Assembly (NCBI GenBank): GCA_041397105.1
Contig: JAWKXJ010000009.1
Span: 1,049-65,048, forward strand
Direction: 5' to 3'
Length of the DNA stretch: 64,000 nt
Source: Paracoccaceae bacterium
GTDB lineage: Bacteria; Pseudomonadota; Alphaproteobacteria; Rhodobacterales; Rhodobacteraceae
Shown: one piece after another, positions 13,996 to 32,985 of the stretch
How positions within the stretch are numbered: position 1 is the stretch's first letter
How the letters are laid out: each line of letters begins with the position of its first letter
Notes under the pieces: generated by a model
Databases searched by the model: none
Told to the model about the DNA's origin: nothing
What the model saw: the letters and a program-made list of their open reading frames with translations, nothing else
Translations under genes and position numbers: made by a program

Positions 13996-14052
13996 GTCGG
14001 ACCAGTCGGACCACAGTGACCCTGCCGGTCCGACTGGTCCGGATGGTCCGAC
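13996..14052. repeat. iteron-like cluster of GTCGGACC / GGTCCGAC motifs in direct and inverted orientation
   Basis: GTCGGACCA occurs at 13996-14004 and 14005-14013. GGTCCGAC is at 14027-14034, TGGTCCGGA at 14035-14043 and TGGTCCGAC at 14044-14052. Confidence 0.7.
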
Positions 14053-14179
14053 TTACCAGGAAAGATGCACTTCGCGCGCGCGCCCCTTGCTCATGGACGC
14101 CATCCGCGACCATACGCAAATGCACACACCTTACGACCCCACAAACCTTGCAATACCAGACAGTTAAAGGAGAAGAGAC

Positions 14180-14917
14180 GTGACGATAATTCGACGTGGG
14201 CGCCTGAAGTGGGCGATAGGCTACTTGAGGGTCTCCACATACATGCAAGCAGAAGAAGGTCTTGGCCTTGAGCATCAGCGCGAACGCATCCGCGCCTATG
14301 CCCTTGAGAACGGCTACCAGCTCGAACATTTCTTCCAGGACATAGCCTCTGGGAACGACAAGCGTTCGATGATGGATCGTCCGGAGTTCAGCGAAGCGGT
14401 CTATGAGGCTAAGCGGCTCCATGGAACCATCATCGTGGCGCGGCTCGACCGGATCTCACGTAATGAGCGGAAGTTCCTCGAGTTTTGCAGCCAGGAGAAG
14501 ATCCGCATCGTTTCAACCGTCCCCGGTGAAACCGAGGGCTTTCAGCAGATGATCAACGCAGTATCCAAAGCCGAGAGGGTTCGGATAAACATCGTCCAGG
14601 GCACTAAGAAGTCGCTTCGTAAGAAATCAGCACAGGGAGCCGCACTCGGTAGTGTGACCACGGTTCTGAAGGCAAATAGGGCCTCGGCGAAATCGCGGGC
14701 CACGGCCTCGCAGATGACGGTTCTTGATATCCGGGATTTTCTCCTTCGGCATGCCGAGCTGAGGGACAGGACCACTGCTGAGATTGCGGCCGCTTTGAAC
14801 GTCTACGGACTACGGTCCGGGCACGGCCGACTCTGGAACAAGAACTCATTGCGCCGACAGCTCCGGTCGGCGCGCCAGGAACTGGACCTGTTGGATGAGC
14901 CTGATGATGATTTTTGA
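14180..14917 (+). CDS. serine recombinase (resolvase/invertase family)
   Basis: GTG start with a strong RBS (AAAGGAG). AIGYLRVSTYMQAEEGLGLEHQRERIRAY...IIVARLDRISRN carries the catalytic Ser motif of resolvases. Confidence 0.85.
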   Translation: MTIIRRGRLKWAIGYLRVSTYMQAEEGLGLEHQRERIRAYALENGYQLEHFFQDIASGNDKRSMMDRPEFSEAVYEAKRLHGTIIVARLDRISRNERKFLEFCSQEKIRIVSTVPGETEGFQQMINAVSKAERVRINIVQGTKKSLRKKSAQGAALGSVTTVLKANRASAKSRATASQMTVLDIRDFLLRHAELRDRTTAEIAAALNVYGLRSGHGRLWNKNSLRRQLRSARQELDLLDEPDDDF

Positions 14918-15136
14918 TCGAACAACTTCCCGGTGCCTTTCCAATTGAGGAGAGACCGCCATATGGCCGCTTAGAGCGCACAGGAGAGTCACTGGCGGCC
15001 ATATCGATAGTTGCCTGTAGTCGGGCCGGGTAAAGCGATCCCGGCCTTCCAACCAGCTCCAAAGAGTTCCCCGACGTCGCGTCGCTATAAATCACGTAAG
15101 CAGAAAAATCTGCGAGCGATGAGAAAGGTGACGAGA

Positions 15137-15538
15137 ATGGCAAGACGACCCTATCAAGACTCCCGGCTAGCAAAATACCTTGAGAAGCGTGTGCTTGAGC
15201 TCCGGCCGCATAAGACGCAGGCAGAAATCGCCACACAGGCCGGCTTCACACATCCCAACATGATCGCGATGCTGAAAAGCGGCGCGACGAAGCTGCCACT
15301 TGACCGGGTGCCGAGCTTGGCCACCGCCCTTGAATGCGACCCCCGGCTGCTCTTTAACCTGGCGCTCGATCAGCTCGGCGGTGACACCACTGTGCGCGCG
15401 ATAGAGCAGATCTTCGGCGTCGTCGTTACGAAGAACGAGGCAGCTTGGATCGAGGAAATCCGCAACGCGTCAGGTCATACCGACCCGGCCCTTACATCAC
15501 GTGGACGGGCGGCGATCCGGGGGATCTTCGGGAAATGA
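15137..15538 (+). CDS. XRE-family helix-turn-helix regulator
   Basis: KTQAEIATQAGFTHPNMIAMLKSGATKLPLDRVPSLATALECDP is an HTH_3-type motif. The start is at 15137, with 15119 as an alternative. Confidence 0.7.
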   Translation: MARRPYQDSRLAKYLEKRVLELRPHKTQAEIATQAGFTHPNMIAMLKSGATKLPLDRVPSLATALECDPRLLFNLALDQLGGDTTVRAIEQIFGVVVTKNEAAWIEEIRNASGHTDPALTSRGRAAIRGIFGK

Positions 15539-15732
15539 GCAAGCATTGCACACGAAGCCCCGGCAGTTCACCTGAAAGCATGCCAGAACTCACCGAGAAC
15601 GAACGGACCTGGATAGAGTTTCTGCGCCTGATTTCGAATGTAAGCGATCCCGCACTGAGGCTAAGAGACGTCCAACTGCTCCAGCGGATCATACGAAGAA
15701 AGAGTGGTCATGCCGGCCAAGGTGGGGCGTGA
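15535..15732 (+). CDS. hypothetical 65-aa protein, paralogous to the C-terminal tail of the upstream XRE protein
   Basis: Its ATG overlaps the XRE stop (ATGA at 15535-15538). TENERTWIEFLRLISNVSDPALRLR aligns with TKNEAAWIEEIRNASGHTDPALTSR of the XRE protein. Confidence 0.5.
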   Translation: MSKHCTRSPGSSPESMPELTENERTWIEFLRLISNVSDPALRLRDVQLLQRIIRRKSGHAGQGGA

Positions 15733-15769
15733 CATCCGCAGGATTATCTGGTGCAGACCGACCGGTTTT

Positions 15770-16699
15770 CTATCCACGATCCCAAGGAGAGCGTTCATCC
15801 GAAATCACCTGCCCGAAGACATTCTCGCGATGCCAACGCAAATTATGCGGATGCGGCATTTGATATGGATCTTCCGGCCTCAGCAGTTTGCCGCCGGGCC
15901 TAATGAGGCGATCGACGACATCCCCAGGAACCTTGTTTCGAGAAACGAGGATCGTCTCGTTGTCGTCAGCGACAGAAATGAGGCCGCGGTCAAACATCCA
16001 GTGCAGGGTCCCCGAGAGCGCGAGACCATTACGAACTGAGTCACTTCCATCTCTCTCAACTGGCCTGATGTGCGCCGCCTGGACCTCGGGTCGTCCTCCG
16101 CCATTCCGCAACTGCAGTCCCGACATTGCGCAGCGATAGCCGTAGGCCTCGCGGACTTTTCTGCTAAACGCAACATCACGGTATTTGCGTCGCGTCAGCC
16201 GCTCGAGCACAGGCCGTCGGAAGATCAGCGGCTCTTCCTGCATGTCATCATGATACGTTTCGTAGCGTTTCGCTTCGATCTGTTCGAGATCCTGCGGTAG
16301 ACCCAAATCGACGATCCGGGCAAAATCGTCCTCCGGCAGGCGCCGCACAGCCAGTTGCACTGCGCCGCCCGTCAAGGGTGCGCCGTTGGCGTCCGCCAAG
16401 GCCGTCTCCAGCGGTCGCCCGTTCAGCAGCCGCGGCACGTCGCGGTCGAAGGCCAGGTAGCTTCCGGATTCGATCAGGGCCAGATACCTCCCCTCCACGC
16501 CGGGCTTGGGAATGACATCAGAGATCTTGGCGGCAGCGAAATATCCGCGCGGCCCAGCTTTGACAGGCTCGTAATAGATGATCCAATCGCCAACCGCTTC
16601 TTTGACGGCCTTCAGGTAAGATCGCGGGAAGTCGTAGACGACGTCGAGTTCGTCCTCGTAGATCGAATCTGCCTTGTGCAAGAGAACGAGCTTGGCCAT
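15770..16699 (-). CDS. HNH endonuclease (HNH_2-type) with uncharacterised N-terminal domain; candidate type IV restriction nuclease
   Basis: From the internal ATG at 16699 (MAKLVLLHKADSIY...). The C-terminal YRCAMSGLQLRNGGGRPEVQAAHIRPVERDGSDSVRNGLALSGTLHWMFDRGLISV is an HNH motif. Confidence 0.8.
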   Translation of the reverse strand: MAKLVLLHKADSIYEDELDVVYDFPRSYLKAVKEAVGDWIIYYEPVKAGPRGYFAAAKISDVIPKPGVEGRYLALIESGSYLAFDRDVPRLLNGRPLETALADANGAPLTGGAVQLAVRRLPEDDFARIVDLGLPQDLEQIEAKRYETYHDDMQEEPLIFRRPVLERLTRRKYRDVAFSRKVREAYGYRCAMSGLQLRNGGGRPEVQAAHIRPVERDGSDSVRNGLALSGTLHWMFDRGLISVADDNETILVSRNKVPGDVVDRLIRPGGKLLRPEDPYQMPHPHNLRWHRENVFGQVISDERSPWDRG

Positions 16700-17049
16700 G
16701 CATCCAGAAAAGCAGGATCGCCGACGATGGCAAGCGTCATTCAACGCCCCGCTACAGCCGGACAGAGTATTGATCGTGACCAGAGATGGTTCGACCGACC
16801 GAGAGCTGCAGTTCAAGTCGGGCGCGCTGGATGGCACATTTCAGCCCCGTGCGGAAAGCATTGATCGTCCGGCCGCCAACTTGGCTCAGTCTCAATAGGT
16901 AGCTCGAGAAATCTGCCCAAAACGGTAGAAAATGATGCCAACGGGCCGAAGATGGCTCCGTGACCTGGATTGATCCAAGCAATATTAGGGTCAGGACCCA
17001 TTGATCAACCGCTCGCGGCGTGATTCAGCCTCCGCAAGGAGACTGACCG

Positions 17050-17819
17050 ATGAGCAACCTTTTCTGGCTGACGGAAGCGCAGATGGCGCGGCTGAAGCCC
17101 TTCTTTCCCAAGAGCCATGGCAAGCCTCGCGTCGATGACCGGCGAGTATTGAGTGGCATAATCTTCATCAATCGCAATGGCTTGCGCTGGTGCGATGCGC
17201 CGAAGGAGTATGGCCCGCCGAAGACTCTCTACAACCGTTGGAAGCGATGGAGCGACAAGGGGGTCTTCGCCCGGATGATGGATGGCCTGGCTTCTGAGGC
17301 CGCTGTTCCGAAGACGGTGATGATCGACGCGACCTATCTCAAGGCGCACCGCACGGCGACCAGCCTGCGGTCGAAAAAGGGGGGCCAGGCGACCAAAGGG
17401 GCCGTCTGATCGGTCGCACAAAGGGCGGCATGAACACCAAGCTGCATGCCGTTACTGATGCCGATGGCCGCCCGATCCGGTTCTTCATGACCGCAGGCCA
17501 GGTGAGCGACTACACAGGTGCGGCAGCCCTGCTGGGCAGCCTGCCCTCGGCGGAGTGGTTGCTGGCGGACCGGGGCTACGACGCCGACTGGTTCAGAGAT
17601 GCGTTGAAAGACAAAGGGATAAGGCCATGCATCCCGGCCCGCAAGTCGCGCGGCAAGCCCATCAAGCACGACAAGCGCCGCTACAAGCGCCGTAACCGGA
17701 TCGAGATCATGTTCGGGAGGCTGAAGGACTGGCGAAGGGTCGCCACCCGCTACGACCGCTGCCCAAAGGTCTTCCTATCCGCCGTCGCCCTCGCCGCAAC
17801 CGTCATGTTCTGGCTATGA
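17050..17819 (+). CDS. IS5/IS427-type DDE transposase, orfA (17050-17409) fused to orfB (to 17819) by programmed -1 frameshift
   Basis: orfA reads MSNLFWLTEAQMARLKPFFPKSHGKPRVDDRRVLSGIIFINRNGLRWCDAP. orfB reads ...IGRTKGGMNTKLHAVTDADGRPIRFFMTAGQVSDY...DRGYDADWFR...RRNRIEIMFGRLKDWRRVATRYDR. orfB lies in the -1 frame relative to orfA. Confidence 0.85.
17374..17384 (+). promoter_or_regulatory. candidate -1 ribosomal frameshift slippery run AAAAAGGGGGG
   Basis: The homopolymer run sits in the orfA/orfB overlap. Reading in the -1 frame from here gives ...EKGGPGDQRGRLIGRTKGGMNTK, continuous with orfB. Confidence 0.6.
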
Positions 17820-18448
17820 TACAAGAACGAGTCCTGACCCTAGGTGCGATCCAAACCACTGTTTGCGCGTCGAGCCCGGCAAGATAGGTCATGATCTGGC
17901 CTAGATGGTTGTGATCGCCCTCTTCAAGCTGATTTTCGATGAGAACAAGGCTATCGTCGTTCTGGTTGCGGGCAAGAATGTCGGCGGCAAATGTCTCGAC
18001 CCGGACTTCGGTTCCTGTGAGTTCCAGTGGGATGCCGATAGCATCTGAGAGATGGTCGATGTTCTCTGCTAACCATGGCGTAAATTCGATCGCCTCGTGC
18101 TTCCACGCCTCCCGGAGTGGCAGATCGACCAAGCGGCCAAAGCGAATGTCGGTCATCTTCTTTACTCCGGGATAAGGCTGACTGGAACTTTTATCACCCT
18201 TATAGCTCTCACCTGCAGCAGATATACTAACAAACATGATCTGCTGCTGGATCTCGATTGTATCGATGCGGACAGAGCAATAAGAAAGTTCGCAGAACAC
18301 CCGCCGCCGGGCCACGATCCCTTTCGGTTTACAGGGCCTTGGAGTGGCTAATTTTGCCCCTAGGCCAAGCCGATCGTAGGGCCAAACTTTCGCACGCCCC
18401 CCCGAAGAAGAACCACCTTTTGTCAGCAGTTCAGTTTAAGGAGATTGA

Positions 18449-19381
18449 ATGGGAACCACTGATATCATCCCTGATATTCATGGGCAGATCGCGAAATTGC
18501 GCGCAGCACTTGACGGGCTAAGCTGGCGCCGTGGTCCCGCCGGCTGGACCCACCCGGAACCGGACCGCAGCATTGTGTTTCTAGGCGACTTCATAGACCG
18601 GGGACACGATAACCGCGCTGTTATCCATCTAGTGCGCAACTTGGTGGACTCGGGTAAGGCGCGCGCGATCATGGGAAACCACGAGCTAAATGCGCTGCAC
18701 TTTCATACAAATAGCGGCGGCGGGCCATTGCGCGAGCATTCCCCAAAGAACCTGCGCCAACACGCAAGTTTTCTCGCCGAGTTTCCCCTGGGGGCGCCCG
18801 CGACGCGAGAGGCACTGGACTGGATGCGCAGCTTGCCGTTGTTTCTTGAAACCGTGGAATTCCGCGCAGTGCATGCCTGCTGGTCCGACGACGCCATCAA
18901 CCAGCTGCGCGCATGCACCGCCGATGGCTTGCTTTCGGAAGAGCAACTTATCCGCACCGCCGATCCCGCGGATCCCATCTTTGCCCTCGCTGAGGTCACC
19001 ACCAAAGGCCCGGAGCACAAGTTGCCGGATGGCTATTTCTTCCGTGATAAGGATGGCACACATCGCCATCACGTCCGCCTGCAGTGGTGGAACGGACGCG
19101 CTCGCACTTGGCGAGACGTTGCGATCTCGGTCCCGGCACCGGGGGATGTGCCCAATACCCCGCTGCCGGATCACTTGCTATCGCAGGCTTATGCCGCCGA
19201 TGCACGCCCGGTCTTTTTCGGCCATTACTGGCTTACCGGTGATCCGGTCCTGCAAGGACATAACGCACTCTGCCTCGATTACTCAGCCGGTAAAGACGGG
19301 CCGCTCGTAACCTATGAATTGCGCCAAGGTGAAAAGCTTCTCAACATTGATCGGATCCGAATCCACTCAGAACTTGCCTGA
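18449..19381 (+). CDS. calcineurin-like metallophosphoesterase (PPP / ApaH-PrpA-lambda phosphatase family)
   Basis: Motifs DIHGQ, IVFLGDFIDRG and AIMGNHELN are present. RBS TAAGGAG. 310 aa. Confidence 0.8.
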   Translation: MGTTDIIPDIHGQIAKLRAALDGLSWRRGPAGWTHPEPDRSIVFLGDFIDRGHDNRAVIHLVRNLVDSGKARAIMGNHELNALHFHTNSGGGPLREHSPKNLRQHASFLAEFPLGAPATREALDWMRSLPLFLETVEFRAVHACWSDDAINQLRACTADGLLSEEQLIRTADPADPIFALAEVTTKGPEHKLPDGYFFRDKDGTHRHHVRLQWWNGRARTWRDVAISVPAPGDVPNTPLPDHLLSQAYAADARPVFFGHYWLTGDPVLQGHNALCLDYSAGKDGPLVTYELRQGEKLLNIDRIRIHSELA

Positions 19382-19644
19382 ACAATGATCTGGATCGCGA
19401 CTCGCTAACGCAAACAAATGAAATCTGTAGCGGGCGGCGCCGCCTGACGAGTCATTCCCAACGTGAGGCGGATAGGGCTGACGATGGATCTCTCCGGCGC
19501 TTAAGTCCAGGCTTTCCCTCGTATCTCGGGTTGTCGAAGTCCGTCGAGTGGATATGGTGTGCCGAGAGGTCGACGGTGTGCTCCGAAGTTTCAACCTCAA
19601 AGCGAATAAGAAAACCAAGAAGATAGTATTGCCCAAGGGACCAC

Positions 19645-21165
19645 ATGAGCATTGAAAAGACCCTCTTCGCCGCCGCCGACAAGATGCGCGGCTCCATGGA
19701 CGCGGGCGAATACAAGCACATCGCCCTGGGTCTTCTCTTCCTCCGCTATGTGTCGATCTCCTTCGAACGCTTGCACGATCAGCTCGCCAAAGACGATTAC
19801 GCCGATCCGGAAGACCCGGATGAATACCTGGCCGAAAGCGTCTTCTGGGTCCCGGAAAAGGCGCGGTGGTCGACGCTGGCCAAGCAGTCGAAGGACCCGA
19901 AGATCGGCATCATGATCGACGACGCCATGCGCGCGATCGAGGCTGACAACGAAACTCTCAAGGGCGCGCTGCCCAAGGTCTTCGGCAAGGAAAGCATCGA
20001 CCGGGCCATGCTCACCGGCCTGATCGACCTCTTCACCAACATCAAGCTGCACGGCGACCGGCGCGACTTCGACCTGATCGGCCGCATCTACGAATACTGC
20101 ATCGGCGAGTTCGCGAGCTCCGAGGGCAAGCGGGGTGGGGAGTTCTACACCCCTAAATCCGTCGTCGACACGCTGATCGAGATGATCGAGCCGACCCGCG
20201 GCCGCGTCTACGACCCCTGCTGCGGCACCGGCGGCTTCTTTGTCCAGTCCGAGAAGTTCATCGAGGCGCATTCCGGCCAGCGCAACGACATCGCGATCTA
20301 CGGGCAGGAGCGCAACCACACCACCTTCGGCCTTGCCCGGATGAACCTCGCCATCCGCGGCATATTCGCTGACATTCGCTGGAACTCCGAGGGCACGTTG
20401 GTCAAGGACGCCTTCCCGGACGAACGCTTCGACTATGTTCTCGCCAATCCGCCCTTCAACATCTCCGACTGGTCGGGCGAACTCTTGCGCGAGGATGTGC
20501 GCTGGAAGTTCGGCGCGCCGCCCGTGGGCAACGCCAACTTCGGCTGGATTCAGCATATCTACGCCCACCTCTCGGCCACAGGTATTGGTGGTGTGGTCAT
20601 GGCCAACGGGTCGATGTCGTCGATGTCCGGGGGCGAGGGCGACATCCGCCGCGCGCTGGTCGAGGGCGGGGCCGTGGATGCCATGGTGGCGCTGCCGGGG
20701 CAGCTTTTCTACGGCACCCAGATTCCGGCCTGCCTGTGGATCCTGGCCAAGGACAAGTCGAACGGCATCGGCAAGGACGCCAAGCTGCGCGACCGGCGCG
20801 GCGAGGTGCTGTTCATCGACGCCCGCAAGATGGGCGCGCTGGTGCCGGGCAGCCGCAAGCAGAAGGAACTGTCGGGGGACGAGGTCGACCGGATCGCGCG
20901 CGCCTACCACGCCTGGCGGGGGGAGCCGGACGCCGGCGCCTATGAAGATGAGCCGGGCTTCTGCAAGGCGGCCTCGCTGGAGGAGATCGCGAAGCACAAC
21001 TTCGTCCTGACCCCGGGCCGCTATGTCGGCGCAGGGGCCGCGGAAGAGGATGGCGAGCCCTTCGAGGAGAAGTTCGAGCGCCTGATGCGCGAGTTGCGCA
21101 GCCAGTTCGCCGAGGGGCGGCGGCTGGAGGCCGAGATCGAGGCGCGGCTGGGGGCGTTGGGATGA
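19645..21165 (+). CDS. hsdM: type I restriction-modification system, N6-adenine DNA methyltransferase subunit
   Basis: HsdM N-terminal domain (LFAAADKMRGSMDAGEYKHIALGLLFLRY), SAM motif VYDPCCGTGGFF and catalytic VLANPPFN. Confidence 0.95.
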   Translation: MSIEKTLFAAADKMRGSMDAGEYKHIALGLLFLRYVSISFERLHDQLAKDDYADPEDPDEYLAESVFWVPEKARWSTLAKQSKDPKIGIMIDDAMRAIEADNETLKGALPKVFGKESIDRAMLTGLIDLFTNIKLHGDRRDFDLIGRIYEYCIGEFASSEGKRGGEFYTPKSVVDTLIEMIEPTRGRVYDPCCGTGGFFVQSEKFIEAHSGQRNDIAIYGQERNHTTFGLARMNLAIRGIFADIRWNSEGTLVKDAFPDERFDYVLANPPFNISDWSGELLREDVRWKFGAPPVGNANFGWIQHIYAHLSATGIGGVVMANGSMSSMSGGEGDIRRALVEGGAVDAMVALPGQLFYGTQIPACLWILAKDKSNGIGKDAKLRDRRGEVLFIDARKMGALVPGSRKQKELSGDEVDRIARAYHAWRGEPDAGAYEDEPGFCKAASLEEIAKHNFVLTPGRYVGAGAAEEDGEPFEEKFERLMRELRSQFAEGRRLEAEIEARLGALG

Positions 21166-22457
21166 CCAAGACACTTGCCGAGGCAATAGGGGGCGCACGT
21201 AGGATTATCGGTGGCCCCTTCGGTTCCAAGCTGACCACGAAAGATTACGCTTCTTCTGGAATACCCGTTATTCGCGGTTCAAATATGGAGGTCGATGGGC
21301 GTTGGATCGGAGGCGAGTTCGCCTTTGTTTCCGCTGAAAAATACGATCGTGATCTAGCATCGAACAGCGCCAGAGCAGGCAACATCATCGTGACGCAGCG
21401 AGGAACGCTCGGACAAGTGTCGATCATCCCAGACGACTCCGCCTTTCAACAATACGTTGTTTCACAAAGCCAAATGGCAATTGATGTTGATCCTTCAACT
21501 GCGGATCGGAATTTCGTTTACTATTATTTACGGTCACCGACCTTCGTAGATCATTCCCATACACAGACGATTCAAACGGGCGTCCCACACATCAACCTCG
21601 GCGTGCTACGCGAAGCTCCGTCGAACTTCCCACCACTCGACGAACAACGCGAGATCGCGGCGATCCTTGGGGCGCTGGATGACAAGATCGAGCTGAACCG
21701 CAAGACGGCGGCGACGCTCGAGGCGATGGCGCGGGCGCTCTATCGCTCGTGGTTCGTCGATTTCGACCCCGTCTGGGCCAAGACCGAAGGCCGCTCCCCC
21801 GCCCACATGCCCCCCGCCACCGCCGCCCTCTTCCCCGACAGCTTCGGCGATGATGGTCTGCCGGTGGGGTGGACTGTGCAGCCGTTGAAGTCCCTTGCAA
21901 AAGTCACCATGGGCCTTTCACCAAAGGGCACCTCATACAACGACCAAGCCATTGGCACGCCATTGTGCAATGGGCCGGTCGAGTATGGCGATTTCTTCTT
22001 GAAAAAAGCAAAGTGGACTACGGCACCAACGCGCCTCGCGGAGCGCGGCGATCTAATTATCTGTATCCGCGGGTCGACAACGGGTCGGCACGCATTTGCG
22101 GACGACCAATACTGCCTCGGTCGCGGTGTGGCTGGAGTTCGTGGCAATACTGGTTCTCAGGAGTTCATCGACAACGCGCTTCTGTTCAACATGCCTGCCC
22201 TTCTTGAAAAGACGACAGGATCGGTTTTCCCAAGCCTTTCACAGGACGACATCGGCAACTTTGAATTGACCGCCCCCGGGAATACTTCAATCGTCACAAG
22301 GTTCTGCGAATTGGTGCGCCCGTTTCGGGAAACAGCCTGGAACAACATTGTTGAAAATCAATCACTCGCAACCCTCCGCGACACCCTCCTGCCTCGGCTC
22401 ATGTCGGGCGAGCTGCGCGTGGGCGAGGCGCGGGACCAGGTGGAGGTGGTTGCCTGA
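21162..22457 (+). CDS. hsdS: type I restriction-modification system, specificity subunit
   Basis: There are two target-recognition domains. They are separated by the conserved helical spacer LDEQREIAAILGALDDKIELNRKTAATLEAMARALYRSWFVDFDP. A C-terminal repeat ENQSLATLRDTLLPRLMSGELRV follows. ATGA overlap with hsdM. Confidence 0.9.
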   Translation: MTKTLAEAIGGARRIIGGPFGSKLTTKDYASSGIPVIRGSNMEVDGRWIGGEFAFVSAEKYDRDLASNSARAGNIIVTQRGTLGQVSIIPDDSAFQQYVVSQSQMAIDVDPSTADRNFVYYYLRSPTFVDHSHTQTIQTGVPHINLGVLREAPSNFPPLDEQREIAAILGALDDKIELNRKTAATLEAMARALYRSWFVDFDPVWAKTEGRSPAHMPPATAALFPDSFGDDGLPVGWTVQPLKSLAKVTMGLSPKGTSYNDQAIGTPLCNGPVEYGDFFLKKAKWTTAPTRLAERGDLIICIRGSTTGRHAFADDQYCLGRGVAGVRGNTGSQEFIDNALLFNMPALLEKTTGSVFPSLSQDDIGNFELTAPGNTSIVTRFCELVRPFRETAWNNIVENQSLATLRDTLLPRLMSGELRVGEARDQVEVVA

Positions 22458-23200
22458 TGCCTCATCCGATATCTTTGCGCGACTACCTTCGACAGCGGGC
22501 CGCCTGGGTCTGGAATGAGCAGGGCCATGCATTCGATCACGGCCTGACTCTGCAGGAGGAAACGCTTACTGAAATGCTCCTTCTTCGCATGGCACGGGAT
22601 CATGCAAAACATGGCTTGGCGGTCACCATGTTCAACAAGACCGAAGAAGGGATCAATGGCGCCGACTGGGAATGGATCATCCGCACGCGGTCCTGCGAAC
22701 TGGGTCTGCGGGTCCAGGCCAAGCGGCTATTTCATCATGGCAAGTCGCAGGACTATGGCGGTCTCGACCCGAAATCCGACCAAGCTGACAAATTGATCAC
22801 GAAGGCGGGCCCGAACATCCCGCTGTATGTTTTCTTCAACCATGATCACGGATTGAATTCCAACCTACTGCATGGTGGCGGTGAACACCCCTATCGTGGC
22901 CGCAGCTACTGGGGATGCGCGATTGCCTGCGCCAAGGCGGTGAAAATGGCCGATTCCAACAAACTGAACTATCTAAAAAAAATAATGAAGCCATGGCATC
23001 GCCTAGTAACCATTTCCGGGAAGTGCGACGCAAAGAGCGCTCTTGGTATTTCGCCCGAGGGCATGGAGGCCTCCATGCCGCAGGAGCGCCGGGAAATCAT
23101 CGGGCGAATAACGGACCGAGATTTCATGTCTCAGTATATTCAAATCCGAGATTTGGCTGGGGTGGCCATTCTGGATTTTTCCGATTTCAGAGGTAGGTGA
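22457..23200 (+). CDS. uncharacterised 247-aa protein with Mrr-cat-like PD-(D/E)xK signature (orfX)
   Basis: Its start overlaps the hsdS stop (TGATG at 22455-22459). It carries the motif EEGINGADWEWIIRTRSCELGLRVQAKRL (D70, Q87-A-K89). I do not recognise a family name. Confidence 0.6.
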   Translation: MPHPISLRDYLRQRAAWVWNEQGHAFDHGLTLQEETLTEMLLLRMARDHAKHGLAVTMFNKTEEGINGADWEWIIRTRSCELGLRVQAKRLFHHGKSQDYGGLDPKSDQADKLITKAGPNIPLYVFFNHDHGLNSNLLHGGGEHPYRGRSYWGCAIACAKAVKMADSNKLNYLKKIMKPWHRLVTISGKCDAKSALGISPEGMEASMPQERREIIGRITDRDFMSQYIQIRDLAGVAILDFSDFRGR

Positions 23201-24335
23201 TGTTTCAAGTCAATCGTTCCGAAAACCGGCTGAAGAAACTTGAAGTCAAACGCTTCTCCGACCTCGCGCTCCGCGAGCGGGACCATCTTCAGGAATGGCT
23301 CGCCAATCAGCCCGACGCACTCGGCGAGGATCTCCTGATCATCCAGAAGGAGTTCGACGGCTTCGCGGACACGCGCGAACGGCTCGACCTGCTTGCACTC
23401 GACGGCGACGGGCAGCTGGTGGTGATCGAGAACAAGCTCGACGATTCTGGCCGGGGTGTGGCCTGGCAGGCCCTGAAATACGCGGCCTACGTGTCCAGTC
23501 TGACCAAGGCGCAGATCATCGACATCTACCAACAATATCTCGATCGACACGAGGGCGGCGGCAATGCGGTGCAGCGGATATGTGAATTTCTGGAGGTCGA
23601 CGCGCTGGACGAAGTGGTGCTGAACCCCGGTCATGACCAACGCCTGATGTTCATCGCTGCGAACTTCCGCAAGGAGGTGACATCGACGGTGCTGTGGCTG
23701 CGCGAACACCGGATCGACGCCCGCTGCTTCAAGGTGACGCCATACACTTTCGCTGATGAGATTCTGATTGATATCCAGCCCGTAATCCCGACGCCAGAAG
23801 CCGCAGACTTCATGATAGGCATGGCCGAGAAGGAGACAGAAGCCAAGAGCGCACAGGGTGCGCAACGAAAGAGCCATAAACTGCGTCTCGAGTTCTGGAC
23901 GCAATGCCTTGAGGTTTTGCGTGCCAGAGGTCTATCCCGTTACAATAATATCAGCCCCAGCAAGGATCATTGGCTCAGTTCGGGAACAGGCGTTTCCGGC
24001 TGCGTCTATAACCTGATATTTTCCCGAGACGATGTCCGAGTGGAGTTGAGCCTGCAAAAGAGCGACCAGGGTGAGAACAAGTGGATGTTCGACGAGTTGG
24101 AAGCCCAGAAGGCGGAGATCGAGCGCAGCTTTGGTGCGGCCCTGGTCTGGAAGCGCATGGATGACAGAAAGTCCAGCAAGATAGCGTTTGCACAGCCCGC
24201 CGATGGCTATAATCACGAGGACTGGCCTGTGATGATTGAATGGCTTGGGGTCCATATTGCTAGGCTTGAGGGTGCATTTCGCGAACCACTACAGCGGCTC
24301 AATCAGGTCCTGAAGTCTGGTGAAGGGGCCACCTG

Positions 24336-24336
<1 letters not shown>
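23200..24336 (+). CDS. NucS-like PD-(D/E)xK domain + DUF4268 domain protein (orfY)
   Basis: TGATG junction at 23198-23202, with a GTG alternative at 23197. The N-terminal [24 protein letters not shown] is a D...E-x-K motif. The C-terminal [13 protein letters not shown]...[30 protein letters not shown]...[18 protein letters not shown] resembles DUF4268. Confidence 0.7.
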
Positions 24337-27569
<3,233 letters not shown>

Positions 27570-27670
27570 GATCTCTTTCTAAATCCGCGAAGCGATTGTT
27601 GAATGCCTACCGCTCGCGGTCCTGGCTTCCAGTTCGTCTGGTTGTTCGGTTTTATGCACTTCGAAAGATA

Positions 27671-29020
27671 TTATCCAATGACATCGAGCATGTTCGCTAG
27701 TTCGCTTAGCGCCTCCTCTTGTGGATCTCGGATGTCCTTCATGACTCTCGTCAGCCTCAGGTAGTGCGATGCCGCAGCGCTGACGTTCTCGCGCTTGAGC
27801 GGGTTTGTGTGGCCAAGGATCTGGTCAATCGTGGAGGCTGGCACCTTCAGGGCCTGCATGATTGTCGACGCCGTTCTCCGAAGGTCATGTCGATGCCAGC
27901 CGGATGTTTCGCTGACCCGGTAGAGCGCGCCCTGCAACCTCTGCCAATTGTCCAGCTTCCCGCCCTTGGAGTTTGGAAACACATACCCGTCCGGCTTTCT
28001 AGTTGTGTGTCCAGGCAGATCGCTAAGAAGATCTATCGTCGCCTGTGACAGTGGCAGACTTTGCCCACGCGGCCCACCGCGTGTCGATTTCACCCTAGGC
28101 TTGCGCCAAACGCCATTGCCCAGATCCAGATCGCGCCATTGCATGGTCTCGACCTCTTCGCGGCGGGCGGCCGTAAGCAACATGAAGCGCATCGCGATGG
28201 GGCGATAATCCAACTCCGCGGGGATCCGCAGCCCGAGATTCTTTCGGGCAGGATAGGTGAGCCATGGAAGGATTCTGCGCAGCTCATCCTCGGAAAGCAC
28301 GCGGTCGCGGTCTCCCTTGATCGTCGGATCCTGGATTGCAGGATCATGTATCTGATCGAGCGAGACCACATCGAGACGGGGCACCCTTCCGGCGCCGACC
28401 TTTGAGAAAGACTTGCGGCTTGATGCCCAGTCGAGCACAGGCATCAGATAGGCGCGAGCGCGAGAAGCCTGACCGTTTGCCGTAGACTTGCCGTTCAAAG
28501 CGCGTTTCGGTCGGTATCCGTTGATTGCCATTCCGAGCTGCTCAAGCGTGAGGTCAGTGACCTGGTCGTCGAGCAGGCGCTCGAGGACAGACTCGATGAC
28601 GGCTCTCGCGCCGCTCCGCTCAGAGCGCTTTCCGCGTGGCGCCCAGGACTTCCGGATGGCTCTGTAAGTGCGCTCATACTCTTGGACGAGCTCGCGCAGC
28701 GTGGGGGTCTGGCTGTCGTCACGAGCAGCATGACGAACAAGGCGCTTCTCCGCGTTGATGTCTTTGCCTGCCTTCAGGTCGAGCCTAGCGCGCGTCGCAG
28801 CTTGCCTAGCATCACGAAGCGACATTTCAGGATAGTGCCCTAGAGTTACTGTCTTGAGCCTTGATGCCGCATCCCTTGCCTTGAGCAGGAATGTCTTCTG
28901 CCCCGTTTCAGCGACGCGAATGCGTAAGCCTGCGCATCCGGCGTCTGTCATCTCACTGCGCCGACCATCGTAGATCAGTTTTCGTAGATATGCGTCAGTG
29001 AAGGCTTTGCGGTCGGACAT
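27671..29020 (-). CDS. int: tyrosine-type site-specific integrase (P4-like, DUF4102 arm-binding N-terminal domain)
   Basis: The N-terminus FTDAYLRKLIYDGRRSEMTDAGCAGLRIRVAETGQKTFLLKAR is DUF4102-like. The catalytic region is LLTAARREEV...HDLRRTASTIMQAL...ILGH. Confidence 0.9.
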   Translation of the reverse strand: MSDRKAFTDAYLRKLIYDGRRSEMTDAGCAGLRIRVAETGQKTFLLKARDAASRLKTVTLGHYPEMSLRDARQAATRARLDLKAGKDINAEKRLVRHAARDDSQTPTLRELVQEYERTYRAIRKSWAPRGKRSERSGARAVIESVLERLLDDQVTDLTLEQLGMAINGYRPKRALNGKSTANGQASRARAYLMPVLDWASSRKSFSKVGAGRVPRLDVVSLDQIHDPAIQDPTIKGDRDRVLSEDELRRILPWLTYPARKNLGLRIPAELDYRPIAMRFMLLTAARREEVETMQWRDLDLGNGVWRKPRVKSTRGGPRGQSLPLSQATIDLLSDLPGHTTRKPDGYVFPNSKGGKLDNWQRLQGALYRVSETSGWHRHDLRRTASTIMQALKVPASTIDQILGHTNPLKRENVSAAASHYLRLTRVMKDIRDPQEEALSELANMLDVIG

Positions 29021-29030
29021 TCAGCATCCT

Positions 29031-29049
29031 GGGCTACATATGGGCTACA
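29031..29049 (+). repeat. GGGCTACA-TAT-GGGCTACA tandem motif (candidate arm-type site, attR side, just upstream of int start)
   Basis: Identical 19-mer to 11702-11720. Confidence 0.6.
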
Positions 29050-29190
29050 AATTCGATCCGATTTCCTGCAACTCAATGCAGCACGGTGCAGTTGGGTGCA
29101 AGTCACGGATCCTAGATTTACTTATATATTTCAGATGCATATCTCATTTATTTACAGGCCCGCAAGGGGCATCTGATAATTGGATATGAA

Positions 29191-29237
29191 GACTGAAAAT
29201 CCTCGTGTCGGTGGTTCAAATCCGCCCCCGGGCACCA
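29191..29237 (+). repeat. attR: 47-bp direct repeat (orphan 3' tRNA-Phe fragment)
   Basis: Identical to 11588-11634. It lacks the 5' half of the tRNA. Confidence 0.9.
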
Positions 29238-29375
29238 TGCATCACTCACTTCTCTGAACTGGTAGGCATTTCTGCCGTACCTGCTCCGTGCCATCTATCC
29301 AACTGGTCGTGTTAACAGAAATGCCATGCGGCACGGCCCATCGGCCCCGATCCAGATCATCTGCCACACCCGTCT

Positions 29376-30338
29376 CTACCCGACCGGACCCTTGTGGCGC
29401 TTGCGGCCGGGCACGATGTCCGCGCCGGAGATGAAAAGAAGAGCCCCGCCCAGAAGACCGAACGCTGTCAAGACGAGGCTCCATGCAAATCCAAGGGCGA
29501 AGGCCTGTTCGGCGAGAATGCCGAATTGACCATAAAGCACGACGAATGCGGTTTCGCGCAGACCCAGACCGTTTGGGGAAATCGGCAGAAGGGTGATCAG
29601 AATAATGATCGGCACCAGCACGAAATGAGACGAGAGCGCAACGTCGATCCCCATCGCTTTCGCAAGCAGGGAAATCGGGAGGATGACGGCCAGCGTCTGC
29701 ACGGCAACGGCTATCGCCAGGCAAATGGAAAGAACCCCTGGCCGCCGTGCAATCGTTTTTATGGCCGACAGAAACGGGTCAAGCCGCTCCCAAAGGCCTC
29801 CATTGAGCTGCCGCAGCACGAACGCAGCACCAGCCATCCCGACCGCAAGGGCCACCGCCGCCTTCAGCACCGCTGTCTTCGTGTCCGCCTCAACGATGTC
29901 GCCTGCCGCCAGCGCGGCAACCGCTGCAACCATCGTGACCGCGAGAACGCCGATCAGCCGGTCGACGACAATGCTCGCATAGGCCCCGCCGCGCGCGCCC
30001 ACCGCCCGTCGCAGAAACTCTGCCCGCACAAGATCGCCGCCCGCCATCGTCGGGATACCGAGATTGACGAACATGCCGACGAGATAGAGGCGAAGTAGTG
30101 CCGGAAGTGATGGCGGGGCCGGCATGATCTGTAAGAGCGCCAGCCGCCAGCGCAGGCTTGACAGGACCTGCCCTGCACCAAAAAGCGCAATGACCAGGAG
30201 GATCGTCCCGACGTCGAGTTCCGCCAGCACCTCAACCGCGGCAGTGAAATCTATCACCCGAAAGAGGGCGACAAGAAAAACCGCGGCGACACAGATGCGG
30301 ATCAGGGGCCAGACGCGGCGGGTGACGCACCCAGTCAT
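29376..30338 (-). CDS. flippase-like membrane protein (UPF0104 / lysylphosphatidylglycerol-synthase TM-region family)
   Basis: A 320-aa polytopic hydrophobic protein with ...SSLRWRLALLQ... and multiple TM segments. ATGA overlap with the upstream gene. Confidence 0.6.
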   Translation of the reverse strand: MTGCVTRRVWPLIRICVAAVFLVALFRVIDFTAAVEVLAELDVGTILLVIALFGAGQVLSSLRWRLALLQIMPAPPSLPALLRLYLVGMFVNLGIPTMAGGDLVRAEFLRRAVGARGGAYASIVVDRLIGVLAVTMVAAVAALAAGDIVEADTKTAVLKAAVALAVGMAGAAFVLRQLNGGLWERLDPFLSAIKTIARRPGVLSICLAIAVAVQTLAVILPISLLAKAMGIDVALSSHFVLVPIIILITLLPISPNGLGLRETAFVVLYGQFGILAEQAFALGFAWSLVLTAFGLLGGALLFISGADIVPGRKRHKGPVG

Positions 30339-31978
30339 GGCGCCGCCCCGCTGGGGTCAATCGCGTAGCCGTAGCCGGCATCGCCGGTCTCGAACCGGAC
30401 GCCGTTCGCGAGATATGTGCCGGCCAATGCGGCGACCTCTTCGCTCAGGACCGGGCGCGCCGCCTTCATGTCAGCGTTCGGCTCGACGACATCGTCAAGC
30501 ATCACCACCCTGCCACCCGCCGACAGAACCCTTTCGATTGCCGCACGCGTCGCTTCCATACCGGCCTCATCGGTGCGCAGCACATCCGCCGCTGCCATAT
30601 GGTCCAGATACTGCTGCAGGTTCCAGTTCGTGCCGATGACGATCAGGTCGCCCGGCCCGGTCCGTTCGATCAGCGCCGTCCCACGCGCGCGGAAGAAATC
30701 GCTGGCCGGGCTGAACTGTATTCCGATCCCCGCAAGGCCGTTATGGGCGACAAGGACAAGCGCAAGAACGCCGACAAGGCCGGCCCGACCGGCAGCCATG
30801 CAGGGACCCACGCAAAGAACGGACCAGAGGATCGTCAGGGGCACCAGCGCAAGAATCCAGCCTTCGAAGCCGGTCGGGGACAGGACCGTCATCATCGCGC
30901 CATGCAGGACGAGCCAGATCAGCAAGAGCGGCCCCGCACCAGACAGGGCGCCCGAAACCCGATGCCGGATCGCGACACGCAGCGAGACCGCGAAAAGGAC
31001 CGCGGCAGCGGGCAAGGTGACAAGGGGCACCCAGGCGAGCCAGCCCGCGCGAGTCGCGGCATAGATCTCCTCGTCGAGGATCGCGCCCGGCGACACACGT
31101 TCGAACAGGTCGCGAACCGGCGCGTGCGCAAGCAGCCAGTTGGCTGAAAGAATATCCGACCCGAGCCCGTAGGCGACGGCAAGGGCCGTTTTTGCCGTCG
31201 GAAGCTCGGGGAAGAGTTCGCGAAGCTGAAAGAGGAAACCGACGGCGCCGTCCCCGGATCGGGAACTGCCGGCCATCGCACCCGCGACCAGCCCCAATGC
31301 CACAATCGTACCGGAAATTACCAGATAGCGTGGCAGCCACCGGACATGGCCGCGTAGGAGCAGATGGATCGGGATCGCCATGCCCGACAGAATTGCGAGT
31401 GGTTGGTAAACCAGCGCCCCGACGCCACCGAGGATGGCGAGTTGCAAGGCCCCCCTGCCCCTACCTGCCTGCGGGCAGCGATCAAGCCGGAATGTCATGT
31501 GAAGGAGGAAAATCGCAACCAGGACCGCCATCGCATAAATCTCGATTTCGGTGGCGTAACGCCAGACCCCGTAGCTTGCCGCGAAGAATGCAGCGCCAAG
31601 CCAGGCGGATGCGCCGCTCACCAAGAAATGCGACCTCAGGACATGGGCAAGAAGCATCACGGCAATCGCAGTCAGAGCGGCATTCAGAACCGCGAATAAC
31701 GTGAAGATGTCCGGATCAGGCACAAGGACCGCGACGAGCCGGTAAAGGCACTGCATCGCGAATATCCAGAGCATTCCGCGAGGATGCGGCACGGACATCA
31801 GCGGTTCATCGGTGATGATACGCGCATAGTAATAGGGGTCGATGCTGATCGAGTGGTTCGCAGGCGCGGTCAGGAAGTATCCAAGCGAGAGGATCAGAAA
31901 TATGGCGGCGCGTCGGGACAAAGGCACCCCGTCAGGCCTTACCTCCCGGTCTTGTGGAGGTACGGTCCGCGCGGTCAT
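30335..31978 (-). CDS. large polytopic membrane protein, possible GT-C-fold (ArnT/PMT-like) glycosyltransferase
   Basis: The start at 31978 (MTARTVPPQDREV...) forms an ATGA overlap with the upstream deacetylase stop. There are about 12 hydrophobic segments followed by a soluble C-terminal domain. The track ORF extension to 32560 overlaps the deacetylase gene and is rejected. Confidence 0.55.
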   Translation of the reverse strand: MTARTVPPQDREVRPDGVPLSRRAAIFLILSLGYFLTAPANHSISIDPYYYARIITDEPLMSVPHPRGMLWIFAMQCLYRLVAVLVPDPDIFTLFAVLNAALTAIAVMLLAHVLRSHFLVSGASAWLGAAFFAASYGVWRYATEIEIYAMAVLVAIFLLHMTFRLDRCPQAGRGRGALQLAILGGVGALVYQPLAILSGMAIPIHLLLRGHVRWLPRYLVISGTIVALGLVAGAMAGSSRSGDGAVGFLFQLRELFPELPTAKTALAVAYGLGSDILSANWLLAHAPVRDLFERVSPGAILDEEIYAATRAGWLAWVPLVTLPAAAVLFAVSLRVAIRHRVSGALSGAGPLLLIWLVLHGAMMTVLSPTGFEGWILALVPLTILWSVLCVGPCMAAGRAGLVGVLALVLVAHNGLAGIGIQFSPASDFFRARGTALIERTGPGDLIVIGTNWNLQQYLDHMAAADVLRTDEAGMEATRAAIERVLSAGGRVVMLDDVVEPNADMKAARPVLSEEVAALAGTYLANGVRFETGDAGYGYAIDPSGAAP

Positions 31979-32985
31979 CCGCCCTGCTCCAAACCGGCCG
32001 GACCGCCGTCCTCGGCCTTCGACGCCTTGAAATCCGGGCGGCGGAGGCGGGGTTGCATCGCCGCGAGCCGCCCGGCATGCGCACCGATGGTTTCGACAAC
32101 GCATTGCCGGTCGAGAATCGAAAGAAGCCGGCGCATTCGGTCCATCTTCTCTGCCGCGCCCTGATCCATCGCCGGAAAGAACCCGAGCTGTGGCGCGTCG
32201 TCCTTTCCCAGAAAATCGAGCGGATGCAGCAGTAGCGACGGCTCGATCCCGGCCAGACGACAGGCGGACAGCGCTGTCGCGAAATAGGTTCGGGACAGGC
32301 CCTCGGACATTCCGGCAAGCCAGTGCAGATAGCTGAAATGGATCGGCATGCGAATGACCGGCATTGTCGCCACCGGAATCTCCAATAGACCTGCGCCGCC
32401 GACGTCCCAGCGATAGGGCCGCAGCGGGCGTATCCCGTCGCGAAGTCCGCCGAACAGTGCCTTGCGCTTGGCCTTCTGCGCGGTATCGAGCCGCGCGTTC
32501 AGGAAATAGTAGGCGCGCGCCAGAGGGCCGACAAAGGTCGGAAAGGTCGAACAGTCGCAAGCGTAACCTCGATCTGCGAGAACGCGAAGTACCGTTTCGG
32601 AAAGACTGTAGCCGGGGCCACGGAAGACGTTCGGCCGCTGGCCTGTCGCGCCTTCGATCGCGGCCTCGGCATTCCTGATTTCGTCGACAACCTCGGCTTC
32701 GCTATAGAGATGAAGCCAGGGTTCGTGCTTGAACGAATGGTTGCCGATCTCGTGTCCGGCCTCCGGGATCGAACGAAGCGCCGCATGATTGTACTCCAGC
32801 GCCGCATCCTGCCCGACGACGAAGACCGTGATCTTCATCGAAAACTCGTCGAGCAGCGAAAGAAAGCGGGGCACGACGATATCGAGATAGGACGGAAAGG
32901 CGTTCCAACCCGGGTCGCCATGAGTCTTCATGTAGGACCACAGGTTGTCGAGATCGAGCGACAGGCTGCCTCGGTTAGGTTTCAT
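31975..32985 (-). CDS. polysaccharide deacetylase family protein
   Basis: SLSLDLDNLWSY...ITVFVVGQDAAL...AGHEIGNHSFKHEPW are NodB-type motifs, including HEIGNH. Confidence 0.8.
   Translation of the reverse strand: MKPNRGSLSLDLDNLWSYMKTHGDPGWNAFPSYLDIVVPRFLSLLDEFSMKITVFVVGQDAALEYNHAALRSIPEAGHEIGNHSFKHEPWLHLYSEAEVVDEIRNAEAAIEGATGQRPNVFRGPGYSLSETVLRVLADRGYACDCSTFPTFVGPLARAYYFLNARLDTAQKAKRKALFGGLRDGIRPLRPYRWDVGGAGLLEIPVATMPVIRMPIHFSYLHWLAGMSEGLSRTYFATALSACRLAGIEPSLLLHPLDFLGKDDAPQLGFFPAMDQGAAEKMDRMRRLLSILDRQCVVETIGAHAGRLAAMQPRLRRPDFKASKAEDGGPAGLEQGG

Follow-up and report, generated by a model that had tools for sequence, protein, structure and literature searches.

Two extra genes, orfX and orfY, lie between the S and R subunit genes of a type I restriction-modification (R-M) operon from a marine Rhodobacteraceae genome. 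Based on gene order, family memberships, motif conservation, separability, and mosaicism, we conclude, with a probability of roughly 0.6, that the hsdS-hsdR gap of this operon is a cargo slot holding two separable single-gene nuclease modules, an orfY of the MdgA/PDC-S11 type and an independent orfX of the DUF6615 family, which are co-transcribed with the hsd genes. This reading includes three predictions, namely nuclease activity for OrfX, the substrates assigned to the two proteins, and a defense phenotype. We regard the two modules as separable sharers of one slot because of the contexts in which each gene is found, seen from both sides, and because the divergence of orfX is uncorrelated with that of its neighbors. 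Below, the window is the whole 64,000-nt stretch of DNA that was analyzed, coordinates are those of its forward strand, and loci with L numbers are the relatives that were surveyed.

The hsdM-hsdS-orfX-orfY-hsdR operon

The five open reading frames (ORFs) follow one another on the same strand with zero intergenic DNA (Table 1). The hsdM/hsdS junction reads ATGA (21162-21165), and the next three junctions all read TGATG (22455-22459, 23198-23202, and 24334-24338). This gapless array and its four junctions had been described in the initial annotation and are confirmed in the sequence. Assignment to type I R-M is unambiguous: HsdM has an N6-adenine methyltransferase domain, HsdS has two target recognition domains (TRDs), and HsdR has an N-terminal nuclease and a superfamily 2 translocase, all encoded in one operon. 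The two TRDs of HsdS are variable, and hsdS has a conserved central region near 21650. All five ORFs are genuine genes, each with strong family matches or numerous homologs. The gene order and the Hsd family matches also bear out the earlier statement that orfX and orfY lie inside a type I operon, at the position that is also used by PrrC.

The length of 379 aa first given for OrfY counts from a GTG at 23197. We place the start at the ATG at 23200, which gives a protein of 378 aa, because the homologs all begin with MFQV (M1 is invariant); the same start is implied by the TGATG overlap. Shine-Dalgarno-like motifs (GGAGG, GAGG, and GAAGGGG) are found 6 to 10 nt 5' of the starts of orfX, orfY, and hsdR. 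Tight gene junctions are typical of R-M operons. In related loci, orfX and orfY overlap by as much as 4 nt or are separated by as much as ~11 nt, and the exact TGATG is not conserved. Between 19000 and 28000, there are 4 promoter-like sites (2.4 expected) and 8 terminator-like sites (7.8 expected), which is chance level, so the scan is uninformative. With such sites at chance level, co-transcription of orfX and orfY with the hsd genes is plausible.

TABLE 1 Coordinates of the operon genes, of conserved segments within orfX and orfY, and of the flanking mobility genes
Feature	Position	Strand	Description
hsdM	19645..21165	+	Type I methyltransferase subunit, 506 aa; Pfam N6_Mtase 1.4e-100, HsdM_N 1.5e-22; PADLOC MTase_I 4.5e-176
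hsdS	21162..22457	+	Specificity subunit, 431 aa; Pfam Methylase_S in 2 stretches; PADLOC Specificity_I 1.4e-84
orfX	22457..23200	+	DUF6615 protein, 247 aa; predicted PD-(D/E)xK-type nuclease, candidate defense gene
orfX helix motif E34-E35-T-L-T-E39	22556..22573	+	E34 and T38 invariant; E35, T36, and E39 >=90%; in model helix 34-47
orfX motif G-A-D70-W-E-W	22658..22675	+	D70 invariant; G68, A69, and W71 >=90%; start of core strand 2 (70-76)
orfX motif R-V-Q87-A-K89-R	22709..22726	+	QxK variant of ExK; K89 invariant; R85, Q87, and A88 >=90%; core strand 3 (81-93)
orfY	23200..24336	+	378 aa; PDC-S11/MdgA family, N-terminal NucS-like nuclease and C-terminal DUF4268
orfY catalytic segment D63...V-V-I-E77-N-K79	23386..23436	+	D63, E77, N78, K79, L80, D81, and D82 invariant among homologs
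orfY DUF4268 domain, residues 228-362	23881..24285	+	Pfam; model pLDDT ~90; variable, probably substrate recognition
hsdR	24336..27569	+	Restriction/translocase subunit, 1077 aa; Pfam HSDR_N, SWI2_SNF2, T1R_D3-like, T1RH-like_C; TIGR00348 1.2e-177; PADLOC REase_I E=0
IS4/IS5-family transposase, two ORFs	17050..17819	+	Left edge of island; Pfam DUF4096 1.2e-21, DDE_Tnp_1 7.9e-17
Tyrosine integrase	27671..29020	-	Directly downstream of hsdR; Pfam Arm-DNA-bind_3 9.4e-16, Phage_integrase 4.5e-15

Placement of OrfY in the MdgA/PDC-S11 family

The match of OrfY to the PADLOC PDC-S11 model PDLC04913 (E=7.2e-172) is full length, pairing residues 1-373 with positions 1-373 of the 375-position profile, and OrfY also contains Pfam DUF4268 (5.5e-38). 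Residues 16-101 weakly match the NucS model (5e-4), and the catalytic-domain region alone aligns. OrfY as a NucS/EndoMS ortholog was rejected: it reaches ~19 bits against NCBIfam cutoffs of 216 and 252, the N-terminal DNA-binding domain of NucS is unaligned, and the likeness is to the NucS fold only. More than 7,300 homologs of OrfY were found, and the family is present on 362 plasmids. The motif glutamate is residue 77 in 113 of 118 homologs.

PDC families were mined from genes embedded in type I R-M, BREX, and DISARM loci (Payne et al., bioRxiv 10.1101/2024.01.29.577857), and OrfY resembles PDC-S11 both in its full-length match to the hidden Markov model and in its embedding in type I R-M, which is how PDCs were defined. 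The parts of the Payne et al. 2024 supplements that were examined contain none of the strings PDC-S11, DUF4268, and DUF6615. PDC-S11 differs from the present locus in being a single-gene candidate, whereas here a DUF6615 gene, which is in no PADLOC model, lies upstream. The characterized relative is MdgA (modification defense gene A), obtained by functional metagenomics from a human fecal metagenome insert (Cell Host Microbe 2025; PMC12366544). One ORF, which combines NucS and DUF4268, is enough for defense against T4 and also confers resistance to Mu. The purified protein degrades T4 DNA and degrades T4-GT7 DNA much less, and the E77A substitution abolishes both cleavage and defense. The E77A primer (KJF_555) encodes V-I-V-A-N-K-L-D-D, and the authors proposed DUF4268 as the substrate-recognition domain (PMC12366544).

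OrfY shares with MdgA the single-ORF NucS-like plus DUF4268 architecture and the motif x-x-V/I-E77-N-K-L-D-D at the same residue number, and a homolog 55% identical to OrfY (L112) has the exact MdgA motif at residue 77. Because of the full-length PDC-S11 match, the NucS-like plus DUF4268 architecture, and the E77 motif at the same residue number, OrfY is placed in the MdgA/PDC-S11 family; the link to MdgA itself consists of a 9-residue motif, its numbering, and the shared domain architecture. By homology to MdgA, OrfY most likely cuts hypermodified phage DNA. A modification-dependent nuclease was among the roles first offered for orfX plus orfY, and by MdgA architecture, motif, and residue number it is the best reading for OrfY.

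Residues 1-210 of OrfY are 72 to 91% identical to relatives, and residues 225-378 are 42 to 69% identical. Because it diverges faster than residues 1-210, DUF4268 is probably the substrate-recognition domain of OrfY, and its variability fits the recognition role proposed for MdgA. The AlphaFold model of OrfY is usable for DUF4268 only, the alignment (66 to 80% identity) being too shallow for the N-terminal domain, and a Foldseek search with this model gave only weak YbjN, type III secretion system chaperone, and ARPC-like matches. In PHROGs, OrfY matches one phrog of unknown function, through its DUF4268 part. PDB sequence searches with single sequences and with orfX and orfY profiles gave nothing useful.

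OrfX as a predicted nuclease of the DUF6615 family

OrfX matches Pfam DUF6615 (PF20320) with 40.9 bits against a cutoff of 23.8, and a protein 100% identical to it is encoded in a Rhodobacteraceae metagenome-assembled genome. The family comprises ~2,770 clusters at 50% identity (from 1.84 billion proteins), nearly all of them single-domain proteins of 250 to 300 aa. Conservation was measured across 127 representatives (22 to 57% identity), every one of which matches the DUF6615 profile. OrfX has no match in PADLOC, NCBIfam, or PHROGs. Both genes had been called uncharacterized; this does not hold for orfY, a PDC-S11, MdgA-like gene, and does hold for orfX, since literature searches on DUF6615 and PF20320 found no paper. 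Alignment of the orfX profile to the orfY profile with hhalign shows no relationship, which argues that the two genes are not paralogs.

The AlphaFold2 model of OrfX (pLDDT 83.7, pTM 0.85) has a helix at residues 34-47, strands at 55-60, 70-76, and 81-93, a helix at 109-116, and a strand at 121-128. This alpha-beta-beta-beta-alpha-beta topology is, in the model, that of the PD-(D/E)xK core. Across the representatives, E34, T38, E64, D70, K89, and Q109 are invariant, and E35, E39, and Q87 are nearly so. Based on the core topology together with invariant E34, D70, and K89 and near-invariant E35, E39, and Q87, we infer that OrfX is probably an active, divergent, Mg-dependent PD-(D/E)xK nuclease. 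The initial view that both proteins are nuclease-like is thus upheld as a prediction, by PD-(D/E)xK-type features in the OrfX model and motifs and by E77-N-K79 in OrfY. The residues that it singled out are conserved, with D70 and K89 of OrfX invariant in the 127 relatives and E77-N-K79 of OrfY also invariant.

In Foldseek searches, the weak matches of OrfX are mainly to Hjc, RecU, HincII, MspJI, and DrdV (E 0.1-3), with further weak matches to phage PD-(D/E)xK and resolvase proteins (E 0.16-0.9). OrfX had also been described as Mrr-cat-like, and this description has to be given up: neither OrfX nor any of its 127 relatives matches Mrr_cat (PF04471) at E<=1, and only the type of motif, D...QxK, resembles Mrr. 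We take this motif to be Mrr/MspJI-like, but OrfX differs from Mrr and MspJI in having no Mrr_cat match and no recognizable modified-base reader domain.

A different reading of OrfX is that it is not an active nuclease but a binding or scaffold protein derived from the PD-(D/E)xK fold, or a protein with a role outside defense. Consistent with this, OrfX matches no nuclease structure or family significantly, its sole recurrent weak sequence match is vertebrate Rep15, a nonenzymatic Rab effector, and some neighbors of DUF6615 genes are ordinary metabolic genes. However, the acidic and lysine positions are strictly conserved in an active-site-like pattern in a family of ~2,770 clusters sampled at 127 representatives, Rep15 does not have the QxK, and the gene is repeatedly embedded in R-M and defense loci. 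We therefore consider this reading very improbable and retain the prediction of a nuclease.

The resemblance to Rep15 (Rab15 effector) is an observation in its own right. Pfam Rab15_effector is weakly matched by 20 of the 127 DUF6615 representatives (best E 0.006), and vertebrate Rep15 is the top PDB match of OrfX (profile E 0.7; Foldseek 8a4b_A E 0.04). It shares the GADWxW motif and the helix with DUF6615, and a remote homology between the bacterial and the vertebrate proteins is possible. No paper linking Rep15 to nucleases was found.

orfX and orfY occur together and apart

The orfX-centered survey covered 80 species, and the orfY-centered survey covered 4 plasmids and 80 metagenome contigs. 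DUF6615 lies inside a type I operon in 26 of the 80 species, and in 20 to 21 of these 26 it abuts or overlaps the hsdS stop codon. Two loci with only an HsdM-like match 4 to 5 kb away (L044 and L050) are not counted as embedded. An orfY-type gene is in the same slot at 20 of the 26 hsd-embedded loci. The other six (L005, L014, L027, L051, L053, and L071) have orfX without orfY, accompanied by nothing else or by DUF262 GmrSD-like, FRG-domain, or IrrE-peptidase plus PIN-like cargo. In L062, both genes are present with a dGTPase-like gene between them. DUF6615 is found with neither hsd nor orfY, and with no conserved neighbor, in 51 of the 80 species, and no hsd gene is within 10 kb of it in 52 of the 80. 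These non-hsd genes are often beside HmaA, MkoA, PDC-S06, HerA, EcoEI-like HsdR, Mrr_cat, and CBASS-type effector genes. A stand-alone DUF6615 gene lies between an EcoEI-like HsdR gene and a Mokosh MkoA gene at 4938-15840 of L044, and another adjoins the Hma helicase HmaA at 10001-14635 of L047, which suggests that DUF6615 is embedded in several kinds of defense systems besides type I R-M.

Viewed from orfY, the association is looser. An orfX-family gene is upstream of orfY at 4 of ~63 assessable loci, and the loci without orfX comprise 38 that are hsd-linked and 21 that are solo, which is the embedded and solo pattern of PDC-S11. Plasmids carry both hsdMS-orfY-hsdR without orfX and stand-alone orfY. 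The X-linked genes are confined to a single alphaproteobacterial clade of the orfY tree and are interleaved there with X-less relatives. At the sister of the window orfY, on P. yeei pYEE5, the place of orfX is taken by an unrelated gene of 150 aa.

Protein identity to the window was compared across the loci with both genes. OrfX identity is uncorrelated with that of OrfY (rho 0.18, p=0.42), HsdM (0.01), HsdR (0.04), or HsdS (0.21), while OrfY, HsdM, HsdS, and HsdR co-vary (rho 0.56-0.92). At L013, for example, identity to the window is 96% for HsdM, 91% for HsdR, 72% for OrfY, and 39% for OrfX. An obligate two-gene X-Y system was therefore rejected, given the 4 of ~63 orfY loci with orfX, the 6 hsd loci with orfX alone, the 51 loci with neither hsd nor orfY, and the rho of 0.18. 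The initial annotation had treated orfX plus orfY as a two-component module, and this claim does not stand: orfY occurs in hsd operons without orfX and by itself, orfX occurs without orfY and with other cargo, and the history of orfX alleles is unlinked to that of orfY and hsd. X-Y adjacency is common in Rhodobacterales, where orfX is usually directly upstream of orfY, but it is not obligate.

Mosaic divergence along the operon

DNA identity profiles of the window against four related operons alternate between conserved blocks (0.7-0.95), which are hsdM, central hsdS, the 5' nuclease half of orfY, and hsdR, and variable blocks (0.3-0.6), which are both HsdS TRDs, orfX (most of all its 3' half), and the DUF4268 half of orfY. 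Within hsdS, the TRDs are at 0.3-0.55 and the central block is at 0.80-0.95; DUF4268 is at 0.43-0.57. The GC content at third codon positions is 0.63-0.70 in hsdS, orfX, and orfY, compared with 0.89 in hsdM and 0.77 in hsdR. Because the catalytic parts are conserved and the TRDs, orfX, and DUF4268 are variable, these profiles suggest that recombination diversifies several specificity determinants of the operon together. Hitchhiking of orfX with exchange of HsdS TRD2 was considered and rejected, since the orfX of L004 is 81% similar to that of the window while its TRD2 is dissimilar, and rho between HsdS and OrfX is 0.21.

Alternative explanations for the pairing and the slot

Several observations weigh against two separable nuclease modules. 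The nuclease structure matches of OrfX are all nonsignificant (best E ~0.1), and Pfam nuclease families are matched by 0 of the 127 DUF6615 members. The OrfY model has low confidence in the N-terminal domain, and the case for homology to MdgA consists of the 9-residue motif, its position, and the architecture. In addition, orfY is immediately downstream in 18 of 21 close orfX homologs, with junctions of <= ~12 nt; three loci that lack hsd (L003, L087, and L088) carry the X-Y pair beside a type III Res gene; and L087 and L088 keep divergent orfX alleles upstream of near-identical orfY. orfY is near-identical in all three of these loci, while the identity of orfX to that of the window is 35% in L087 versus 75% in L003 and L088. 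The pair is directly downstream of Res (PADLOC REase_III, E=0) at 6708-11880 of L003.

The adjacency data would fit a genuine two-component system in Rhodobacterales, in which OrfX assists the MdgA-like nuclease, for example by regulating it, by serving as its specificity or sensor subunit, or by acting as a further nuclease or nickase; orfY would be autonomous elsewhere, and this orfX subfamily would depend on orfY. The association is asymmetric in the expected sense (20 of 26 hsd-embedded and 18 of 21 close orfX homologs have orfY), the pair moves together to the type III Res context, orfX alleles as different as 75% and 35% are kept upstream of near-identical orfY, and distant DUF6615 genes are paired with distant orfY-like genes in L030, L062, and L074. 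However, orfY is a very common hsd cargo, on 362 plasmids compared with 647 that have any related HsdR (mostly clonal Klebsiella, so that these counts are a rough guide only), so orfX and orfY may co-occur simply because both are often carried in the same slot. The orfY genes most closely related to the X-linked ones (L081, L104, L138, L090, L091, and L093) lack orfX, and other genes take its position. Divergence of OrfX does not follow that of OrfY, orfY is absent from the vicinity of most DUF6615 genes, the dGTPase-like gene separates the pair in L062, and MdgA alone is enough for defense (PMC12366544). A two-component system is thus unlikely. A bolder proposal, which we consider doubtful, is that DUF6615 proteins are antiphage nucleases that have so far gone unrecognized, with alleles exchanged in the hsdS-hsdR slot in the manner of specificity cassettes, and that in Rhodobacterales they may join the MdgA-like OrfY in a type IV-like module of two nucleases able to dock onto type I or type III R-M operons.

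Alternatively, OrfX could be an Hsd-linked accessory and not an autonomous defense protein. It would then be a PrrC-like backup able to sense when the type I enzyme is inhibited, or it would modulate HsdS or HsdR. Its gene occupies the PrrC position, and PrrC is cited as being almost exclusively embedded in type I systems. The frequent contact of orfX with the hsdS stop codon (20 to 21 of 26), its presence in at least two different type I families (L014 versus the rest), and the fact that it varies as sharply as the adjacent HsdS TRDs point the same way. This explanation does not account for the 52 of 80 species with no hsd gene within 10 kb of DUF6615 or for the DUF6615 genes beside type III, Hma, Mokosh, and PDC-S06 genes; OrfX has no ATPase, HEPN, or other sensor domain; and its allele does not track the HsdS allele (rho 0.21). 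We consider a dedicated Hsd accessory quite improbable and continue to prefer two separable modules in a shared slot.

Relation to known systems and a proposed layered restriction model

PrrC and Rlo genes sit between hsdS and hsdR, and PrrC, an anticodon nuclease of the ABC-ATPase type, is restrained by EcoprrI. orfX and orfY share with them the slot and the operon logic of a second defense function riding in type I R-M. They differ in that neither has an ABC/NTPase or anticodon nuclease domain and both families also occur outside hsd. A PrrC-type anticodon nuclease was accordingly rejected for both proteins, as profile searches found no ABC/NTPase plus anticodon nuclease domains. The immigration control region of E. 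coli, hsdRMS-mrr-mcrBC, combines a type I system with modification-dependent PD-(D/E)xK nucleases. The present locus likewise combines type I R-M with a probable modification-dependent nuclease, and MspJI is among the weak fold matches of OrfX, but here the genes are inside the operon with overlapping codons. By analogy, the nearest known counterpart would be hsd-mrr-mcrBC in logic and PrrC in position.

With two separable modules in the slot, a single transcript would encode three or four layers of nucleic acid surveillance. The type I enzyme would methylate self DNA and cut unmethylated foreign DNA. OrfY, a conserved NucS-like PD-(D/E)xK nuclease (D63, E77-x-K79) fused to a fast-diverging and probably substrate-recognizing domain, DUF4268, would by its homology to MdgA cut hypermodified phage DNA and so cover phages that escape the type I enzyme. 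OrfX would add a further, independent defense nuclease, and its alleles would be exchanged by recombination in the slot in the manner of HsdS TRDs. The locus is thus a concrete, clonable candidate for layered restriction from one transcript, type I on unmodified DNA and an MdgA-type enzyme probably on hypermodified DNA, and it nominates DUF6615 as a defense candidate overlooked by current tools. The gain is incremental and not conceptual, because the general principle that defense genes are embedded in type I R-M has already been published and systematically mined (Payne et al., bioRxiv 10.1101/2024.01.29.577857). What is new is DUF6615 as a defense candidate, together with the swapping of its alleles and the frequent but nonobligate X-Y adjacency in Rhodobacterales.

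Other cargo of the slot and the surrounding island

In this type I lineage, the gap between hsdS and hsdR is a hotspot for cargo genes. Cargo-bearing gaps were seen at L071 10762-12906, L051 10716-12848, L062 10841-12112, L053 10773-12104, L005 8775-12461, L105 4741-6861, and L159 3052-5250. The occupants include a GmrSD-like DUF262 protein (714 aa) and dGTPase-like, FRG-domain, IrrE-peptidase plus PIN-like, DUF3800-like plus Fic-like, and Abi-like proteins, several of which were assigned from sequence motifs alone. In three X-less relatives, the slot upstream of orfY holds a pair of genes for proteins of ~190 aa and ~177 aa (L138 5989-7001, L104 2395-3479, and L081 6540-7001), and P. yeei pYEE5 has a gene of the second type only (150 to 153 aa). 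Neither these slot proteins nor the pYEE5 protein has a Pfam match, and the pair may be a further embedded candidate cassette.

We place the operon in a mobile island because it is flanked by the IS4/IS5 transposase and the tyrosine integrase (Table 1); there are no tRNA genes in 14000-32000. A 170-aa ORF on the reverse strand (17803-18315), which has no Pfam match, abuts the transposase. L062 encodes a 330-aa OrfY-like protein, and residues 59-157 of the ORF align with the N-terminal nuclease half of that protein at 53% identity (E=1e-32). The ORF looks like a second NucS-like/DUF4268-type gene that was cut off by insertion of the IS element. A 310-aa calcineurin-like metallophosphoesterase (18449-19381; Pfam Metallophos 3.4e-10) is also encoded inside the island, directly upstream of hsdM. 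At the other end of the operon, the final ~50 residues of HsdR (27410-27569) lie past the T1RH-like_C match, which ends at residue 1025 of 1077, and DNA identity to the related operons drops sharply from ~27350, at the 3' end of hsdR. The hsdR ORF probably reads through into island-specific sequence beside the integrase gene.

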